DNA of 16,015 nucleotides from a virus (taxonomy: Duplodnaviria > Heunggongvirae > Uroviricota > Caudoviricetes): IMG/VR virus record IMGVR_UViG_2851955134_000007; one strand, 5' to 3'. The notes beneath the pieces were generated by a model. That model had not been told where the DNA came from. It ran no database searches and saw only the letters and a list, made by a program, of their open reading frames with translations. The position numbers and the translations under genes are program-made. Of the stretch, positions 5,627 through 16,015 are shown piece by piece. Numbering within the stretch: position 1 is the first letter of the stretch; every line of letters begins with the position of its first letter.

Positions 5627-6010
5627 ATGCGTGATATTCAGATGGTTCTTGAGCGTTGGGGAGCGTGGGCGGCTAATAATCATGAAGATGTGACCTGGTC
5701 GTCCATTGCCGCCGGTTTTAAGGGATTAATTACTTCAAAAGTAAAATCTCGCCCGCAATGTTGTGACGATGACGCGATGATCATTTGCGGGTGCATGGCC
5801 CGTCTGAAAAAGAACAACAGCGATTTGCACGATTTATTAGTAGATTATTATGTAGTCGGTATGACATTCATGTCACTGGCAGGTAAGCATTGCTGCTCTG
5901 ATGGTTATATCGGGAAAAGGTTACAGAAGGCTGAGGGCATAATTGAAGGGATGTTAATGGCATTAGATATCCGGTTAGAGATGGATATCGTTGTTAATAA
6001 CTCTAATTAA
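5627..6010 (+). CDS. quuD: Late-gene antiterminator Q, phage-82 type, 127 aa
   Basis: [33 protein letters not shown]... with Cys clusters [13 protein letters not shown] and KHCCSDG. Recognised as DLP12 QuuD. The ORF-track start at 5612 is an upstream extension. Confidence 0.85.
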
Positions 6011-6043
6011 TATGCCAATTGTTTACTAAAAATTATTAAAAAT

Positions 6044-6190
6044 GGGGCGTTGAGACGCCCCCAAAAATAAAGGGTAATATATAACAGAAGGTTTATATAG
6101 TTAGAAGCAAGGTTGTGCTTCTAAAGGAAGTGGCTTGAGGGAGCCACTTATATGTTGGGGAGGCAAAGCCTCCCGCAACATATCTTTTTC
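6044..6190 (+). promoter_or_regulatory. Late-promoter / terminator region between Q and convergent nmpC
   Basis: Four inverted repeats: GGGGCGT-TGAG-ACGCCCC (6044-6061), GAAGCA-AGGTTG-TGCTTC (about 6104-6125), AAGTGGCT-TGAGGG-AGCCACTT (about 6128-6149) and a 34-nt near-palindrome (6150-6183) followed by CTTTTTC. Candidate -35 TTGAGA (6050-6055) and -10 TAATAT (6075-6080), spacing not optimal. Confidence 0.4.
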
Positions 6191-6199
6191 GTAATCAGA

Positions 6200-7160
6200 T
6201 TAGAACTGATACACCAGACCTACAGCGACGATGTCGTCGGTATCAATACCAGCTGTTTTGGTAAACTTACTATCGTCAATTAAGTTGATTTTGTAATCAA
6301 CAAAAGTGGACATGTTTTTATTAAAGTAGTAAGTAGCACCGACATCGACATACTTGACTAAGTCTCGGTCACCATGAACACCAAGGTCTTTACCTTTTGA
6401 CTGAAGGTAAGCAACAGATGGTCGCAGACCGAAGTCAAACTGATATTGTGCTACTGCTTCAAAGTTTTGTGCTTTGTTTGCAATATGGTTATTACCAAAA
6501 ACGGTCATATTCTGAGTTTCAGAATATGTGGTAGCCAGATAGATATTGTTCGCATCATATTTCAGGCCTGCAGCCCATACTTCCGCATTTTTGCCGGAGG
6601 CATTGAATTTGCTCTTACCATAGGCGACCTGACCGTCAGTGCGATCTGATTTAGCATAGGTTGCACCCACGCCGAATCCTTCATACTCATAAGTAGTGGA
6701 GAAACCGAAACCATCACCATTGGCTTCAGTTACGTCAGTGCGGTCATTTTTACCCTGATACTGAGCAGCAAAGTTCAGGCCATCGACCAGACCAAAGAAG
6801 TCGTTGTTACGATAGGTTGCAACACCAGTGGTGCGACCAGTCATGAACACATCTGTTTGGGTCCAGGTATCGCCACCGAATTCTGGCAGAACGTCAGTCC
6901 ACGCACCGATGTCGTATGCTACACCGTAGTTACGGCCGTAATCGATTGAGCCGTAGTCACCGAATTTCAGGCCTGCAAATGCAAGACGGGTTTTGTCTTT
7001 GGAGGAACCTTGAGATTCAGCGCGGTTGCCTTTGAATTCATATTCCCACTGACCGAAACCAGTCAGTTGATCGTTGATTTGGGTTTCACCTTTGAAGCCA
7101 AGACGGGCATAAGTAGTATCACCATCATCTGCATCGTTAGATGAAAAGTAGTGCTTGGCA
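6200..7160 (-). pseudogene. nmpC: Porin NmpC (OmpC/OmpD family), 3-prime portion from codon 44 to stop, cut off by IS10
   Basis: Translation ...[42 protein letters not shown]... to C-terminal ...VGLVYQF (terminal Phe typical of outer-membrane beta-barrels). The MRGSLSA start in the ORF track is read-through from the IS10 end, not a real start. Confidence 0.9.
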
Positions 7161-7173
7161 CTGAGAGATCCCC

Positions 7174-8382
7174 TCATAATTTCCCCAAAACGTAACCATG
7201 TGTGAATAGATTTTGAGTAAGCAGGGTTGCAGCCACGAGTGAGTCTTCCCTTGTTATTGTGTAGCCAGAATGCCGCAAAACTTCCATGCCTAAGCGAACT
7301 GTTGAGAGTACGTTTCGATTTCTGACTGTGTTAGCCTGGAAGTGCTTGTCCCAACCTTGTTTCTGAGCATGAACGCCCGCAAGCCAACATGTTAGTTGAA
7401 GCATCAGGGCGATTAGCAGCATGATATCAAAACGCTCTGAGCTGCTCGTTCGGCTATGGCGTAGGCCTAGTCCGTAGGCAGGACTTTTCAAGTCTCGGAA
7501 GGTTTCTTCAATCTGCATTCGCTTCGAATAGATATTAACAAGTTGTTTGGGTGTTCGAATTTCAACAGGTAAGTTAGTTGCTAGAATCCATGGCTCCTTT
7601 GCCGACGCTGAGTAGATTTTAGGTGACGGGTGGTGACAATGAGTCCGTGTCGAGCGCTGATTTTTTCGGCCTTTAGAGCGAGATTTATACAATAGAATTT
7701 GGCATGAGATTGGATTGCTTTTAGTCAGCCTCTTATAGCCTAAAGTCTTTGAGTGACTAGATGACATATCATGTAAGTTGCTGATAGGTTTCCAGTTTTC
7801 CGCTCCTAGGTCTGCATATTGTACTTTTCCTCTTACTCGACTTAACCAGTACCAACCCAGCTTCTCAACGGATTTATACCATGGCACTTTAAAGCCAGCA
7901 TCACTGACAATGAGCGGTGTGGTGTTACTCGGTAGAATGCTCGCAAGGTCGGCTAGAAATTGGTCATGAGCTTTCTTTGAACATTGCTCTGAAAGCGGGA
8001 ACGCTTTCTCATAAAGAGTAACAGAACGACCGTGTAGTGCGACTGAAGCTCGCAATACCATAAGCCGTTTTTGCTCACGGATATCAGACCAGTCAACAAG
8101 TACAATGGGCATCGTATTGCCCGAACAGATAAAGCTAGCATGCCAACGGTATACAGCGAGTCGCTCTTTGTGGAGGTGACGATTACCTAACAATCGGTCG
8201 ATTCGTTTGATGTTATGTTTTGTTCTCGCTTTGGTTGGCAGGTTACGGCCAAGTTCGGTAAGAGTGAGAGTTTTACAGTCAAGTAAGGCGTGGCAAGCCA
8301 ACGTTAAGCTGTTGAGTCGTTTTAAGTGTAATTCGGGGCAGAATTGGTAAAGAGAGTCGTGTAAAATATCGAGTTCGCACAT
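7174..8382 (-). CDS. tnp: IS10 transposase, 402 aa
   Basis: [71 protein letters not shown]... recognised as IS10/Tn10 transposase. Start 108 bp from the outside end, as in IS10. Confidence 0.95.
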
Positions 8383-8443
8383 TTTGTTGTCTGATTATTG
8401 ATTTTTGGCGAAACCATTTGATCATATGACAAGATGTGTATCT
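8375..8443 (+). ncRNA. IS10 RNA-OUT antisense RNA (position by analogy with canonical IS10)
   Basis: Region antisense to the transposase 5-prime end; sequence TCGCACATTTTGTTGTCTGATTATTGATTTTTGGCGAAACCATTTGATCATATGACAAG resembles RNA-OUT as recalled and contains the Dam GATC site. Exact ends not determined from sequence. Confidence 0.45.
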
Positions 8444-8489
8444 ACCTTAACTTAATGATTTTGATAAAAATCATTAGGGGATTCATCAG

Positions 8490-8620
8490 TGCTTGGCATT
8501 AACTTTCCCGTACAGATCCAGCTTGTTACTGTCTTTATTATAAATTTCAGCTGCCTGAGCAGACATCGTCATCAGTACTGATGCAGCTACAGCAGAAATT
8601 GCCACTGTTAATTTTTTCAT
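8490..8620 (-). pseudogene. nmpC: Porin NmpC, 5-prime portion (signal peptide plus first mature residues), separated from the rest by IS10
   Basis: Minus-strand translation MKKLTVAISAVAASVLMTMSAQAAEIYNKDSNKLDLYGKVNAKH: signal peptide with AQA-AE cleavage site. Reading frame joins exactly to the 3-prime portion once IS10 and one repeat copy are removed (1083 nt, 360 codons plus stop). Confidence 0.9.
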
Positions 8621-9208
8621 CGTGAGCCCTTTTTTTTGAACTATTATTAAAAAATGATGTCACTGCGCGATAAATATTCATCTAATCAATGTGATTATTT
8701 CAAGATGTAAGTTTTAGTTTCTCATTTAATTTGTGAAGTAGATCTCTATTTTTATCTGAACTTTTTCTATCGAAACCTATTTATGGCTCTTATTTGAACA
8801 AAAATAAACCTATTAGCTAATTTATATTAATGGCTGTTATTTATGGGGGTTCTATAATTCGGTGGTTTAATTTAAATCAACTAAAAATAACGCCGGAAAT
8901 TATTTATTGGTTATTTGTTGAGGTTTTCTTATATATTTGTGGTGGTGTTTTGAACACTCGGTAGCATTCTCATAAATATCATTCAGTGGTTTACGTACGT
9001 AAAAAATTGGTTATGCTGTTAAGAGTGGTTACTTCGTCACACAGCTTAAACCCGCCGTCGAGCTGGTTTTTCCATTTTTTGAGTCTCGATATTAGCTGAT
9101 AACTCAATACCTGAGTTATTCACTGACTCCGAGTCTGTTACGTTTCTGCTTTTTTGCGATACGTTGTATTCCCTCAATTTACACCCGCTTTGTCTGCGAG
9201 GTGGGGTT

Positions 9209-9424
9209 ATGAAATCCATGGATAAGTTAACAACGGGTGTCGCCTATGGCACCTCAGCAGGTAGTGCCGGTTACTGGTTTTTACAGCTGCTCGATAAAGT
9301 CACGCCCTCACAGTGGGCAGCAATAGGTGTGCTGGGTAGCCTGGTATTTGGCCTGCTGACGTACCTGACAAACCTTTATTTCAAGATTAAAGAAGATAAG
9401 CGCAAGGCTGCGAGAGGTGAATAA
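9209..9424 (+). CDS. essD: Class II holin / pinholin, phage-21 S type, 71 aa with dual start
   Basis: [71 protein letters not shown]; Met1-Lys-Ser-Met4 dual-start motif; GAGGTGGGG RBS. Matches phage 21 S as recalled. Confidence 0.9.
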
Positions 9425-9921
9425 TGCCTCCATCATTACGAAAAGCCGTTGCTGCTGCTATTGGTGGCGGAGCAATTGCTATAGCATCAGTGTTAATCAC
9501 TGGCCCAAGTGGTAACGATGGTCTGGAAGGTGTCAGCTACATACCATACAAAGATATTGTTGGTGTATGGACTGTATGTCACGGGCATACAGGAAAAGAC
9601 ATCATGCTCGGTAAAACGTATACCAAAGCAGAATGCAAAGCCCTCCTGAATAAAGACCTTGCCACGGTCGCCAGACAAATTAACCCGTACATAAAAGTTG
9701 ATATACCGGAAACAACGCGCGGCGCTCTTTACTCGTTCGTTTACAACGTGGGCGCTGGCAATTTCAGAACATCGACGCTTCTTCGCAAAATAAACCAGGG
9801 CGATATCAAAGGCGCATGTGATCAGCTACGTCGCTGGACATATGCTGGCGGTAAGCAATGGAAAGGTCTCATGACTCGTCGTGAGATTGAGCGTGAAATC
9901 TGTTTGTGGGGTCAGCAATGA
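9424..9921 (+). CDS. rrrD: SAR endolysin (T4-lysozyme-like, phage 21 R type), 165 aa
   Basis: N-terminal signal-anchor-release segment [20 protein letters not shown] followed by a lysozyme-like domain. Start overlaps the holin stop (TAATG). Confidence 0.9.
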
Positions 9922-10379
9922 ACAGAGTAACCGCGATTATCTCCGCTCTGGTTATCTGCATCATCGTCTGCCTGTCATGGGCTGTTAATCATTACCGTGA
10001 TAACGCCATTACCTACAAAGCCCAGCGCGACAAAAATGCCAGAGAACTGAAGCTGGCGAACGCGGCAATTACTGACATGCAGATGCGCCAGCGTGATGTT
10101 GCTGCACTGGATGAAAAATACACGAAGGAGTTAGCTAATGCGAAAGCTGAAAATGATGCTCTGCGTGATGATGTTGCCGCTGGTCGTCGTCGGTTGCACA
10201 TCAAAGCAGTCTGTCAGTCAGTGCGTGAAGCCACCACCGCCTCCGGCGTGGATAATGCAGCCTCCCCCCGACTGGCAGACACCGCTGAACGGGATTATTT
10301 CACCCTCAGAGAGAGGCTGATCACTATGCAAAAACAACTGGAAGGAACCCAGAAGTATATTAATGAGCAGTGCAGATAG
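9918..10379 (+). CDS. rzpD: Rz inner-membrane spanin, about 153 aa
   Basis: N-terminal TM helix ([21 protein letters not shown]) then coiled-coil periplasmic region. ATG overlaps the endolysin stop (ATGA). Confidence 0.85.
10138..10320 (+). CDS. rzoD: Rz1 outer-membrane lipoprotein spanin, 60 aa, embedded in Rz in the +1 frame
   Basis: [24 protein letters not shown]... with lipobox LVVVGC and proline-rich region [24 protein letters not shown] 7 nt upstream. Confidence 0.85.
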
Positions 10380-11646: not shown

Positions 11647-12192
11647 ATGGAAGTCAACAAAAAGCAGCTGGCTGACATTTTCGGTGCGAGTATCCGTACC
11701 ATTCAGAACTGGCAGGAACAGGGAATGCCCGTTCTGCGAGGCGGTGGCAAGGGTAATGAGGTGCTTTATGACTCTGCCGCCGTTATAAGATGGTATGCCG
11801 AAAGGGATGCTGAAATTGAGAACGAAAAGCTGCGCCGGGAAGTTGAAGAACTGCGGCAGGCCAGCGAGACAGATCTCCAGCCAGGGGCTATTGAGTACGA
11901 ACGCCATCGACTTACGCGTGCGCAGGCCGACGCACAGGAGCTGAAAAATGCCAGAGACTCCGCTGAAGTGGTGGAAACCGCATTCTGTACTTTCGTGCTG
12001 TCGCGGATCGCAGGTGAAATTGCCAGTATTCTCGACGGGATCCCCCTGTCGGTGCAGCGGCGTTTTCCGGAACTGGAAAACCGACATGTTGATTTCCTGA
12101 AACGGGATATCATCAAAGCCATGAACAAAGCAGCCGCGCTGGATGAACTGATACCGGGGTTGCTGAGTGAATATATCGAACAGTCAGGTTAA
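11647..12192 (+). CDS. nohD: Terminase small subunit Nu1, 181 aa
   Basis: MEVNKKQLADIFGASIRTIQNWQEQGMPVLRGGGKGNEVLYDSAAVIRWYAERD... near-identical to lambda Nu1 as recalled. Confidence 0.9.
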   Translation: MEVNKKQLADIFGASIRTIQNWQEQGMPVLRGGGKGNEVLYDSAAVIRWYAERDAEIENEKLRREVEELRQASETDLQPGAIEYERHRLTRAQADAQELKNARDSAEVVETAFCTFVLSRIAGEIASILDGIPLSVQRRFPELENRHVDFLKRDIIKAMNKAAALDELIPGLLSEYIEQSG

Positions 12193-12378
12193 CAGGCTGC
12201 GGCATTTTGTCCGCGCCGGGCTTCGCTCACTGTTCAGGCCGGAGCCACAGACCGCCGTTGAATGGGCGGATGCTAATTACTATCTCCCGAAAGAATCCGC
12301 ATACCAGGAAGGGCGCTGGGAAACACTGCCCTTTCAGCGGGCCATCATGAATGCGATGGGCAGCGACTATAACTGTTA
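12167..12378 (+). pseudogene. A: Terminase large subunit A, N-terminal approx 66 codons only
   Basis: MNISNSQVNRLRHFVRAGLRSLFRPEPQTAVEWADANYYLPKESAYQEGRWETLPFQRAIMNAMGSDY matches the lambda gpA N-terminus; similarity ends after GSDY at about 12376-12380. GTG start overlapping the Nu1 3-prime end, as in lambda. Confidence 0.8.
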
Positions 12379-13295
12379 TTAATGAAAATCCGACAGCACA
12401 AGGATATCAGGCAATTGCTGTAAACACGAATGATGCTTACACCTGCCCGGCAGGTTCTTATACGACGATATCGTGTCTGACGAAAAGTGATAATTCCCGG
12501 TGTCGTGCAAGGTTCGGAAAAATGTCTGATAATGGTGCGTTTGTTTTTCATTCAGATGCAGTTCTGGATCCTGTTACGGGAAATGTTGTTCATGGAAATA
12601 ATGTGACGGTGACGGCAGAAAGAGTCGGTGAATGGTGGTTGTTTACCGCCACTCTTTTTGCAGATGCGGAAATGATAATCAGCTCAAGATTTGAAATCCT
12701 GGCGATGCCTGGAATCAGTATTATCCCCAATGGCTCTACGTTAGATATTGCGATGCCTCAGGCGGAGATTGGGTCGTACAGGACGTCATTTATCATTACT
12801 GAAGGGGCTCCTGGCACTCGCTCCAGCGACATGGTGACAATACCTGTAAGAAACAATATTCACCGATTACCATTCAGTGCTCTTGTTGAAGTTAATAAAA
12901 ACTGGGATATCCCTCCCAGCAAATCACCATTAATCTTTAATGTTAAAGATTATCAGGAAAATGGTCTGTTCACGCATGGATTCCGTGGTAATAATTTCTC
13001 TGATGCCGGTTCTCCTTTTATTTCTATGGGAGGGTGTAATAAATATGTGGCAACAACCCAGAGGAAAATCATTTCAGGCTTCCGTTGTGGCGCTGATGGA
13101 GATGTTCAGGCCGTATGTAATGGTGAATTATCTGTTGCGGCAAAAACAACATGGACTTCAATTGTTCCACGGGCAGTATTGCGAATTGGAGGGCAGGGCA
13201 CTAATGGGGAGTATCATCTTTTTGGTCATATCCGTAATCTGCGTATCTGGCATAAAGAATTAACTGATGCGCAAATGGGGGAGAGTATTAAATGA
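12379..13295 (+). pseudogene. C-terminal approx 305 codons of a receptor-binding / lectin-like (LamG-type jelly-roll) protein, probable tail-fibre remnant fused to the A fragment
   Basis: Frame of ORF 12351-13295. No native start: the ORF ATG is an out-of-frame codon inside the A fragment. C-terminal segment LRIGGQGTNGEYHLFGHIRNLRIWHKELTDAQM resembles the final strands of concanavalin-A-like LamG domains. Domain assignment is from motif recall only. Confidence 0.45.
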
Positions 13296-13573
13296 AAGAT
13301 TTAACACTCAAATTTGCAGACAGGGCCGACTTTTCGGCCTTTATGGAGAGTATTGGCTATTATGATGACGAGTCGATGCAGGATGATATTCTTATTGACG
13401 TGATAGGTAACGTGTACAAAGAAACCGGAGAACTGACTGAAGATGGCGAACCGGTATGTGTTAAGGAAGACGGATATTTTGTAAACGTGCGCATCATTAA
13501 TGATGTAAAAAAATCGTCAATATTCGATAAATACGCGGTTGTTGTTGAGCATCAACTTCGTGGCTGGATGTGA
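13292..13573 (+). CDS. Hypothetical acidic protein, 93 aa
   Basis: ATG overlaps the stop of the upstream fragment (ATGA). Rich in D/E, no TM segment or recognised motif. Confidence 0.5.
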   Translation: MKDLTLKFADRADFSAFMESIGYYDDESMQDDILIDVIGNVYKETGELTEDGEPVCVKEDGYFVNVRIINDVKKSSIFDKYAVVVEHQLRGWM

Positions 13574-13582
13574 GGGAGACAA

Positions 13583-14251
13583 ATGGCTACATCGACAGTA
13601 ATTCCAGGAGATATCACCACGCTAAAGGGAGATGTCAGTAAAACTAAGGAAGATATTTCCTCAATTAACGGAAAAGTATCAACGCTTCAGACTGATATGA
13701 CCAGTGCAAAGCAGGATATCAGCACCAGATACACAAAAACTGAAGTTGATAATAAGCTGAAAAACAAACTGGAAGTGAACGATCTGGAAAGCGGTCGTTA
13801 TGGTGGAGATTTTTACCCGTTGACTGGCCGTGAAGCGTTTTATATGTGGGGATTGGGCACGACTACAGCGGCGGCAAACCTTTATCTTAATCCTGACCCT
13901 GCAATTTCGTCTGTACTGCGGTCAACATCGTCTATTCGCTATAAACATTCAGTAGAGACGATAGATTCAGAGCACGCCGATCTCATTTTCAGGATGCGCC
14001 CTGTGTGGTACAGGTCGCAATGCGAAAATGACAGGCGTGACTGGGGATTCTACGGATTGATTGCCGAGGAAGTAGGAGAAATTGCCCCTCAGTTTGTACA
14101 CTGGCGACCAGCTAACGAAGATGATGCTCCTGAAGCTATTTCCAGCAATGGCCTTGTTGCCGAAGGTGTAATGTACGAACGTCTGGTTGTTCCACTGATT
14201 CACCATATCCAGAAGCTGACTGAAAGAGTTGATGAACTTGAGTCAGATTAA
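13583..14251 (+). CDS. Coiled-coil protein with C-terminal intramolecular-chaperone-like domain (peptidase S74-like), 222 aa
   Basis: GAGGGAG RBS 4-5 nt upstream. N-terminal heptad-like segment (DISSINGKVSTLQTDMTSAKQDIS). C-terminal region SSIRYKHSVETIDSEHADLIFRMRPVWYRSQ...GFYGLIAEEVGEIAPQFV...EGVMYERLVVPLIHHIQKLTERVDELE resembles the self-cleaving chaperone domain of tail fibres/endosialidases, from motif recall. Confidence 0.55.
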   Translation: MATSTVIPGDITTLKGDVSKTKEDISSINGKVSTLQTDMTSAKQDISTRYTKTEVDNKLKNKLEVNDLESGRYGGDFYPLTGREAFYMWGLGTTTAAANLYLNPDPAISSVLRSTSSIRYKHSVETIDSEHADLIFRMRPVWYRSQCENDRRDWGFYGLIAEEVGEIAPQFVHWRPANEDDAPEAISSNGLVAEGVMYERLVVPLIHHIQKLTERVDELESD

Positions 14252-14256
14252 AGTTG

Positions 14257-14286
14257 TTATCCGTTTCCCGAAGCGATATCGGATAA
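14257..14286 (+). promoter_or_regulatory. Inverted repeat TTATCCG-N16-CGGATAA just upstream of the RBS of the 97 aa ORF
   Basis: Perfect 7-bp arms at 14257-14263 and 14280-14286; the spacer contains the palindrome CGATATCG. Right arm abuts the AAGGAGG Shine-Dalgarno (14286-14292). Confidence 0.35.
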
Positions 14287-14296
14287 AGGAGGAGTA

Positions 14297-14590
14297 ATGG
14301 ATATAACACCTTTCCTTCATGCGCTTTGTGCTGTGGCTGCGCAGCTACTGATTGGTCTTTTTACCGGGAACTGGGCTTACGGGGCGATAGCCGGTTGTAC
14401 GTTCTTCATTGCGCGTGAACACACCCAGGCAGAATATCGCTGGATCGAAATGTTCGGGCATGGCAAGCGAATGAATATGCCGTGGTGGGGCGGTTTTGAT
14501 ACACGTGCATGGGATGTGGCAAGCCTGATGGATTTTGCTGTGCCGGTGGTGGCGTGTCTGCTGGTCTGGCTGTTGGTTAATCGTGGGTGA
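14297..14590 (+). CDS. Hypothetical small membrane protein, 97 aa, predicted 2-3 TM helices
   Basis: Strong RBS AAGGAGG 4 nt before the ATG. Hydrophobic segments FLHALCAVAAQLLIGLFTGNWAYGAIAGCTFFIA and ASLMDFAVPVVACLLVWLLV. Confidence 0.5.
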   Translation: MDITPFLHALCAVAAQLLIGLFTGNWAYGAIAGCTFFIAREHTQAEYRWIEMFGHGKRMNMPWWGGFDTRAWDVASLMDFAVPVVACLLVWLLVNRG

Positions 14591-15265
14591 AAAAAGGTGA
14601 GCTGTATATGCAACGGAGGAAGAAAACTCGTTGCTGGAAGCCTGGAAAAAGTATCGGGTGCTGCTAAACCGTGTGGACACTTCCGTAGCACCAGATATCG
14701 AGTGGCTTATTCAACCATAATAAACAGTATGTATATCATAGGTTATTAATTGTGAGTTTTTTCGGTGTGTTATTTGTTTGTTTGATGTTATGCTTTTGCG
14801 CCCCAAAAGGTTGTTTAGATGTATTTTATCAATTGATTTTCAATGTCGTTTAATAAAGAAAAATTAAGCAAGCTGGATGTTGGTTTTTTGTTAATTGAAT
14901 GGTTCTAATAATGTTTTTTTACTGTTGTTGAATGTGACTTGATAAGAAATGCAAGTAAAAATGATACTCTTTTTATTTTAAATTCAAACGGTTGACATAT
15001 ATATAGCAAGAGGTTTCAGGTGCGTTGTAGTGAGTTTATGTTAATAAAAAGTATAGTAAGCGTTGAAAAATGTAACTTTGAAATACGTTAGAATAAAAAA
15101 CAATATACATATAATAATTTAATCTTAAATGAAATTTATTAAAATTTGCAAACTATAATTTTGTGTATAAAAATATAAATGCACATCATCCTGATTATGA
15201 TTGTGTATTTAATTGGTTGTTATTTGACTGCTATCAACTTGTTTTAATTTTATGATAGGTGCAAG

Positions 15266-16015
15266 ATGGATTATGTTTGCTCCGTAGTTTTCATCTGTCA
15301 ATCATTTGATTTAATTATAAACAGGAGAGTTATCTCGTTCAAAAAAAATTCATTGTTTATTGTAAGCGACAAAATTAGAAGGGAGTTACCAGTATGCCCC
15401 TCTAAACTAAGAATTGTTGATATAGATAAGAAAACATGTTTATCCTTTTTTATCGACGTGAATAATGAGCTGCCTGGCAAATTTACTCTTGATAAGAATG
15501 GCTATATTGCTGAAGAGGAACCTCCATTATCGCTTGTTTTTTCTCTGTTTGAAGGGATTAAAATAGCAGACTCACACTCCCTTTGGTTAAAAGAAAGACT
15601 ATGTATATCCTTACTTGCCATGTTCAAAAAACGCGAAAGTGTAAATTCATTTATACTAACAAATATAAATACATTTACCTGTAAAATTACTGGAATAATC
15701 AGTTTTAATATTGAGCGGCAATGGCATTTAAAAGATATTGCGGAATTAATTTATACGAGTGAAAGTTTAATAAAAAAAAGATTAAGGGATGAAGGAACGT
15801 CATTTACTGAAATATTGAGAGATACTAGGATGAGGTATGCAAAAAAACTCATAACTTCAAACTCTTATTCTATCAATGTCGTAGCCCAGAAATGTGGCTA
15901 TAACAGTACTTCATATTTCATATGTGCATTTAAAGATTATTATGGTGTCACGCCATCTCATTATTTTGAGAAAATAATCGGCGTCACAGATGGAATAAAC
16001 AAAACAATTGACTGA
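15266..16015 (+). CDS. appY: AraC-family transcriptional activator AppY, 249 aa
   Basis: [56 protein letters not shown]... with C-terminal AraC-type HTH ([28 protein letters not shown]). Recognised as E. coli AppY. Very AT-rich gene and upstream region. Confidence 0.9.

Follow-up and report, generated by a model that had tools for sequence, protein, structure and literature searches.

Our analysis favors the view that the IS10 element in this DLP12-like prophage is a routine hotspot insertion at codon 44-45 of the porin gene nmpC/lc, and that any effect of its outward promoter (pOUT) on the lysis genes is small; we consider this reading likely. The sole certain effect of the insertion is the disruption of the nmpC porin. 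Judged from the sequence, pOUT may contribute to the expression of the lysis genes, though probably not by much, since these genes have a candidate native promoter (essDp) and transcripts leaving the element would meet several obstacles on their way. All positions refer to the window, i.e. the whole stretch of 16,015 nucleotides that was analysed, and the features are collected in Table 1.

The window is a defective lambdoid prophage, similar to DLP12, at argU. Recombination and nin genes follow intD, and these are followed by rusA, ylcG and the antiterminator gene quuD, whose product also matches the Q21 structures 6P18/6JNX (E 7.6e-7). On the 3' side of quuD comes the porin gene nmpC/lc on the reverse strand, then the lysis cassette, then bor/iss; nohD, a truncated terminase, fragments of tail fibres and appY are found at the right-hand end of the window, and head and tail genes are absent. 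Q, a porin gene on the reverse strand, an S21-type pinholin, a SAR endolysin and Rz/Rz1 follow one another in this order in 36 phage genome records as well, at 93-99% identity, including those of PA-2, Turner and ev099. The TUM9803 prophage is 99.9% identical across 92% of the window, the remaining 8% being the insertion sequence, and represents the uninterrupted site, with TGCTTGGCA present once and an intact porin of 360 aa.

The insertion itself is precise. The element belongs to IS10 (IS4 family) by its length of 1329 bp with terminal repeats, its 9-bp target duplication and its intact DDE transposase reading frame. The inside end (CTGAGAGATCCCC...) begins at 7161 and the outside end (...GGGGATTCATCAG) is at 8489; upon direct reading the terminal inverted repeats are imperfect, with 17 of 23 positions matching. 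Of the IS10 copies of Tn10 on plasmid R100, the one on the jemA/gltS side is 100% identical to ours, and the one on the tetD side (IS10-Right) has 15 differences. Since IS10-Right adjoins tetD in the published Tn10 gene order (PMC5571418, PMC9412624), the copy in the window is the IS10-Left allele, which has been reported to be weak or inactive. Six of the differences between the two alleles fall in IS10 bp 1-107, and three of these (bp 107, 83 and 47) give the RNA-OUT of the window its IS10-Left polymorphisms. No differences from IS10-Right occur in bp 108-409, and consequently the pOUT region is the same as in that well-studied copy. The window thus holds the same element as the IS10/Tn10 pOUT and RNA-OUT system, reportedly described by Simons et al. 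in 1983, rather than a mere relative of it, and we see no structural difference between them.

Table 1. Features of the window that bear on the IS10 insertion and the lysis genes.
Feature	Position	Strand	Evidence or remark
intD	1-1164	minus	
quuD, Q-type antiterminator distantly related to Q21	5627-6010	plus	PF06530, E 3.5e-53
Highly structured quuD-nmpC spacer	6011-6199	plus	-66.9 kcal/mol, z -5.9
Minus-strand terminator in quuD-nmpC spacer	6061-6044	minus	terminator scan
Strong plus-strand terminator in quuD-nmpC spacer	6150-6190	plus	terminator scan
nmpC porin 3' fragment	6200-7160	minus	
Left 9-bp target-site duplication, TGCTTGGCA	7152-7160		
Complete IS10 (IS10-Left allele), 1329 bp	7161-8489	minus	100% identity to Tn10 copy on R100
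IS10 transposase gene, 402 aa, intact ORF	7174-8382	minus	PF01609 DDE_Tnp_1, E 1.5e-24
Probable pOUT -10 hexamer TAAAAT, ending 7 nt before RNA-OUT 5' end	8362-8367	plus	inferred from sequence reading
RNA-OUT antisense RNA; 5' end is the pOUT transcription start	8375-8444	plus	Rfam RF00240, 97.3 bits
nmpC/lc porin 5' fragment: start codon, signal peptide, codons 1-44	8490-8623	minus	
Right 9-bp target-site duplication, TGCTTGGCA	8490-8498		
Inferred essDp: GAACTA 8638-8643, 16-nt spacer, TCACT 8660-8664, +1 about 8670	8638-8670	plus	
Weak terminator-like hairpin and U-tract (UUUUUCCAUUUUUU), upstream of essD	9039-9080	plus	
essD, phage-21-type pinholin/antiholin, dual start M1/M4	9209-9424	plus	PF04971, E 2e-35
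rrrD endolysin	9424-9921	plus	PF00959, E 1.3e-45
rzpD (Rz i-spanin)	9918-10379	plus	PF03245, E 4e-54
rzoD (Rz1 o-spanin), embedded in rzpD	10138-10320	plus	PF06085, E 3e-20

The first-pass annotation had placed the transposase on the minus strand, with the outside end and pOUT facing rightward and a lysis operon starting at 9209 about 720 bp downstream, and this description is accurate to the base: RNA-OUT is on the plus strand at 8375-8444, the outside end of IS10 is at 8489, and essD begins 720 bp past that end and 834 nt from the pOUT start. The RF00240 match covers the full model, with a score far above the gathering score of 41 (E 1e-19); the RNA is antisense to the 5' end of the transposase gene, overlaps its ATG at 8382-8380, and folds into the expected long hairpin (-21.3 kcal/mol). 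From the position and strand of RNA-OUT it follows that pOUT starts at 8375 and faces rightward. No other RNA family was matched in a permissive Rfam scan of 5900-9300. A simple sigma-70 consensus scan missed pOUT, which was therefore called from its exact identity to the characterised sequence of IS10; the promoter/terminator scan of 8200-9500 gave no matches at all, pOUT included, and was uninformative for promoters. RNA-OUT has been described as a 69-nt RNA, the first 35 nt of which pair with the transposase mRNA, with its 3' end at IS10 nt 47 (PMC5006887). The regulatory module of the element is intact, with pIN and the transposase directed leftward and pOUT and RNA-OUT directed rightward toward the lysis cassette, and the bulk of the pOUT product is expected to be the 69-70-nt RNA-OUT, controlling transposase translation.

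The target site supports the view of a routine insertion. The hotspot consensus of IS10 is NGCTNAGCN (PMC4574204), and the target in the window matches it at five of the six specified bases, whereas the target in other nmpC alleles, TGCTTAGCA, is a perfect match (6/6). Among 5426 complete E. coli genomes, 12 carry IS10 at exactly this 9-bp site and approximately 2486 have the site uninterrupted, corresponding to an insertion in ∼0.5% of the genomes having the nmpC site. Different IS10 alleles are present at the site, and the insertions are therefore independent events. One of the 12 cases arose in a laboratory lineage of K-12, BM28, for which an IS10R insertion at nmpC codon 44/346 is on record (PMC10044804). 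The BM28 insertion resembles ours in gene, 9-bp site and orientation, but differs in its IS10 allele (IS10-Right, with 16 differences from ours), in its target (TGCTTAGCA), in an additional IS5 within nmpC, and in the stronger K-12 allele of the terminator upstream of essD.

The recurrence of IS10 could also reflect selection for loss of the prophage porin, e.g. under phage or antibiotic pressure, rather than target preference alone, in which case the orientation of the element and pOUT would be irrelevant. The 12 genomes with the insertion come from ∼9 lineages, K-12 has a separate IS5 in nmpC, and one carrier is labelled carbapenem-resistant, although by its strain name only. On the other hand, most alleles have a perfect NGCTNAGCN hotspot, which by itself is enough to account for the recurrence, and the low frequency of the insertion argues in the same direction. 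We regard selection for porin loss as rather doubtful, and continue to favor routine targeting of the hotspot.

If pOUT acted on the lysis genes with consequences for fitness, the orientation of natural insertions might be informative. Six of the 12 insertions have the orientation seen in the window (24A16CRGN010, two O111:H11 strains, two K-12 BM28 derivatives and strain 16843), and the other six (98203, 2017-03-3CC, LT838200, LT838196, LR-64-1 and MMC-J-0085) are in the opposite orientation at the same 9 bp. The count is small, representing ∼4 against ∼5 independent lineages, and it tests selection and not expression. The lysis cassette is located downstream in three of the four same-orientation lineages, strain 16843 being without it, and in both of the opposite-orientation genomes inspected; moreover, the essD protein is a single RefSeq accession across all genomes checked, in both orientation classes. 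The even split gives no sign that a pOUT aimed at the lysis genes is favored or harmful. A shared orientation, considered as a sign of selection, was ruled out by the six opposite-orientation genomes.

We also considered whether pOUT read-through provides a measurable, Q-independent share of basal pinholin, endolysin and spanin expression in the lysogen. Several observations give this possibility some substance. First, pOUT and RNA-OUT are intact and correctly oriented, with pOUT (8375) and essD (9209) both on the plus strand, as IS-mediated activation of a downstream gene demands. Secondly, read-through from IS10 pOUT into neighboring genes is an established property of the element, at ∼10% of lacUV5 (review PMC9330008), and has been documented to activate acrEF in Salmonella (review PMC9330008; PMC4574204). 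The likeness to acrEF, and to the cat gene in pSU vectors, lies in an outward IS10 promoter facing downstream genes. In the cat case, however, the insertion lay 53 bp before the cat ATG and was obtained by selection (PMC4574204), whereas the target in the window is at a distance of 720 bp, appears to have a promoter of its own, and shows no sign of selection or orientation bias.

Several features of the stretch between pOUT and essD could attenuate read-through. The read-through leader would be 834 nt long, untranslated and 65% A+T, the longest plus-strand reading frame in 8375-9208 being 44 aa. The 719 nt between IS10 and essD have a G+C content of 34.6%, as compared to 44.9% for the window; they consist of 134 nt antisense to the nmpC 5' fragment and a 585-nt spacer of 33% G+C, in which A+T peaks at 74-76% in 8645-8845. 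From its composition, such a leader is a plausible target for Rho or H-NS. Phage PA-2 has annotated CRP sites for the divergent porin promoter, and the nmpC promoter must therefore be in the early part of the spacer and on the opposite strand, where transcription from pOUT would meet it head-on. Transcripts leaving IS10 would thus first cross the antisense stretch against the nmpC promoter region, and then the untranslated spacer with its weak terminator-like hairpin.

The first-pass annotation had called for a search for terminators in 8490-9200, and the outcome was mixed. Terminator scanning and folding revealed no strong intrinsic terminator in 8445-9208 of the window allele, and within IS10 a second A+U hairpin follows RNA-OUT but a U-tract terminator was not found there. 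The sole terminator-like element is a weak hairpin at 9039-9080. In the window this hairpin has a folding energy of -6.7 kcal/mol (z -0.4), whereas its K-12 allele (AAACCCGC/GCGGGTTT) reaches -12 kcal/mol (z -2.3), is followed by a T-tract, and was flagged by the terminator scan. The difference lies in position 9064, where the window, PA-2 and TUM9803 have a T, giving the weaker hairpin, and K-12 has a G. Read-through is therefore possible, and more plausible in the window allele than in K-12. Against a measurable share for pOUT stand the long, untranslated, A+T-rich leader, the head-on encounter with the nmpC promoter region, the lack of orientation bias among natural insertions, a native promoter fragment closer to essD, and the expectation that polymerase started at pOUT is not Q-modified (10.1101/651190). 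On balance we find such a share unlikely.

The lysis cassette itself is of the phage 21 type, comprising a class II dual-start pinholin, a lysozyme-family endolysin, and Rz with an embedded Rz1. The Pfam matches of essD, rrrD, rzpD and rzoD are all full-length. The dual start of essD (MKSM) was seen upon direct reading and is annotated in phages 434B and 21, the counterparts of rrrD are annotated as SAR endolysins in the same two phages, and the name essD is the one annotated in close relatives.

According to the first-pass annotation, nmpC separates these genes from their Q-dependent promoter, which would leave them in want of another source of transcription. The reverse-strand nmpC does lie between quuD and the lysis cassette, but the loss of a promoter is doubtful, as the promoter fragment studied in K-12 maps rightward of the IS10 end. 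A Q-type antiterminator, RpoE and Hha reportedly control the lysis operon of DLP12, and a lux reporter built on its regulatory region, given as '-121 to +650', responds to pH and osmolarity (PMC7918800). The primers of that construct, Pdlp12Fw/Rv, map to 8548 and 9313-9331 of the window. The resulting fragment, 8548-9331, lies wholly to the right of the element and starts 58 bp from its end; the K-12 product by best primer match is 768 bp, as compared to the 771 bp implied by the published coordinates. By arithmetic from these coordinates, which come from a secondary paper, we infer the position of essDp and assign its motif, with a +1 ∼180 bp right of the IS10 end. The motif is sigma-E-like and invariant in five alleles. 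An RpoS-holoenzyme SELEX peak has moreover been reported in the insH-essD spacer (PMC5493296). The lysis cassette thus appears to keep its native promoter, provided that the K-12 result carries over to the window allele, and pOUT would then be expected to make a small addition to essDp in the expression of essD-rrrD-rzpD. A TATAAT at 8853-8858 was considered as a pR' and rejected, as it is without a usable -35, lies where the spacer varies most, and is TATGAT in PA-2.

The closest known systems here are the lambdoid Q/pR' late operons with morons, exemplified by phage 21, PA-2 (lc porin) and DLP12 (essDp). The Q-responsive promoter of the window could adjoin quuD, by analogy with phage 21, or else be situated between nmpC and essD, where the published essDp is. 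Its position bears on the opposite possibility, namely that IS10 lowers lysis or late expression, either by adding 1.3 kb to the late leader if pR' adjoins quuD, or through occlusion of essDp (8638-8670) by pOUT. In phage 21 the -35 of pR' starts 7 nt past the Q stop codon, with the Q-binding element, pause element and terminator in the same block. Similarly, in phage Lambda_2E9 the Q gene is directly followed by a promoter (TTGCTG, 17 nt, TAATGT) and a terminator, with a reverse-strand moron beyond them. The hairpin-packed quuD-nmpC spacer, which ends in a strong terminator, is like a pR'-tR' leader in this respect. However, a convincing sigma-70 promoter was not found in 6011-6045, either by scanning or by direct reading, nor was a convincing pR' or Q-binding element found next to quuD. 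The annotated pR' and Q-binding element of phage 21 (TTGACA, followed by ATTGAGCA and AATGAGCA) had no counterpart that we could read in the window, and when the post-quuD and nmpC-essD spacers were compared with Lambda_2E9 by local blastn, nothing was shared outside the Q gene; non-coding homology was thus seen with neither phage. An 11-nt match, ATTATTAAAAA, between these two spacers of the window is probably due to chance in A+T-rich DNA.

A longer leader need not matter to polymerase under Q control. In lambda, Q-modified polymerase reads through terminators over long distances, and Q-modified transcription from a quuD-adjacent pR' would be expected to pass through both nmpC and IS10 in any case. 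Moreover, the genome record of phage 434B has the DLP12 block of Q, nmpC::IS5 and SRRz, with an insertion sequence in the same interval, and the prophage in the window is already defective. Taken together, a lowering of lysis or late expression by IS10 seems to us very unlikely, and we retain the reading of a hotspot insertion with little effect on the lysis genes. Since loading of Q takes place only on polymerase held at a sigma-dependent pause beside pR' (10.1101/651190), polymerase started at pOUT would stay sensitive to terminators.

Much of what is described here is already known, i.e. IS10, its pOUT and RNA-OUT, hotspot targeting, read-through activation, and the nmpC codon 44 site in K-12 BM28. 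From a practical point of view, nmpC is inactivated in this prophage, and its lysis genes should not be presumed promoterless. More speculatively, the weakened terminator together with pOUT might supply a constitutive trickle of pinholin, endolysin and spanin transcripts that is independent of Q and RpoE, resulting in an orientation-dependent envelope phenotype such as vesiculation, biofilm formation or autolysis; we think this improbable. The lysis genes of DLP12 have been reported to affect outer-membrane vesicle production and biofilm. If pOUT did supply them with transcripts, strains found in nature that carry IS10 here in one orientation or the other would constitute a ready-made experimental pair. 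Should pOUT indeed feed the lysis cassette, the prophage would provide a small example of an insertion sequence rewiring the basal expression of potentially lethal prophage genes.

A terminator-like hairpin followed by a T-tract lies upstream of essD, the first gene of the lysis cassette, and it could represent a tR'-like element of the lysis operon. Its folding energy is -12 kcal/mol in the K-12 allele (strong) versus -6.7 kcal/mol in the allele of the window, in which a single G-to-T change at 9064 weakens the structure relative to K-12. The weak allele is also found in phage PA-2 and in strain TUM9803, which carries a near-isogenic prophage with an empty IS10 site. Just upstream of essD, the K-12 allele and that of strain 98203, where IS10 is inserted in the opposite orientation, lack the 16-bp segment CTGCTTTTTTGCGATA (window 9147-9162).

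Candidate transcription signals in the window
Feature	Coordinates	Strand	Remarks
Strong terminator	6150-6190	plus	inside quuD-nmpC spacer
Terminator	6061-6044	minus	inside quuD-nmpC spacer
Sigma-E-like motif	8638-8670		GAACTA, 16 nt, TCACT; exactly at essDp start according to the published reporter coordinates, "-121 to +650" (PMC7918800)
Terminator-like hairpin and T-tract	9039-9080 (K-12 allele: L002 9049-9070)		about 130 nt upstream of essD

At the other end of the interrupted porin gene, the spacer that separates the Q-type antiterminator gene quuD from the nmpC 3' end (6011-6199) folds into 4 or 5 strong hairpins (-66.9 kcal/mol, z -5.9). These may constitute a late leader of the pR'-tR' kind, or they may just be terminators placed back to back. 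Positions 6032-6042, just after quuD, and positions 8643-8653 in the spacer of the putative essDp share the identical 11-mer ATTATTAAAAA; in A+T-rich DNA such a match is probably due to chance. The sigma-E-like motif itself and the start codon of the divergently oriented nmpC, at 8623, are only ∼15-45 nt apart.

On the minus strand of 8490-8700, the nmpC promoter is now directed into the outside end of IS10, co-directionally with the transposase gene, and the cut-off porin frame continues for 51 nt inside the element before a TAG stop. IS10 reportedly resists external read-through of this kind.

The copy at 7161-8489 is the IS10-Left allele. Although the literature describes this allele as weakly active or inactive, many E. 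coli chromosomes contain exact copies of it as solo insertions with target duplications. Of 5426 E. coli genomes, 1902 carry IS10, with at least 40 matching places in O111:H11 strains, and natural copies display Left and Right polymorphisms mixed as mosaics.

The prophage in the window is defective. Within 12167-16015 the terminase large-subunit ORF ends after 71 aa and is directly followed by tail-fibre fragments and appY, as is also the case in TUM9803; head or tail genes are absent. The K-12 DLP12 block quuD-nmpC::IS5-essD is present in the phage 434B genome record (OL657227; L008 3408-6999), whose annotation marks this stretch as non-homologous to phage 434. Consequently, an insertion sequence between Q and the lysis genes also occurs in a phage genome.
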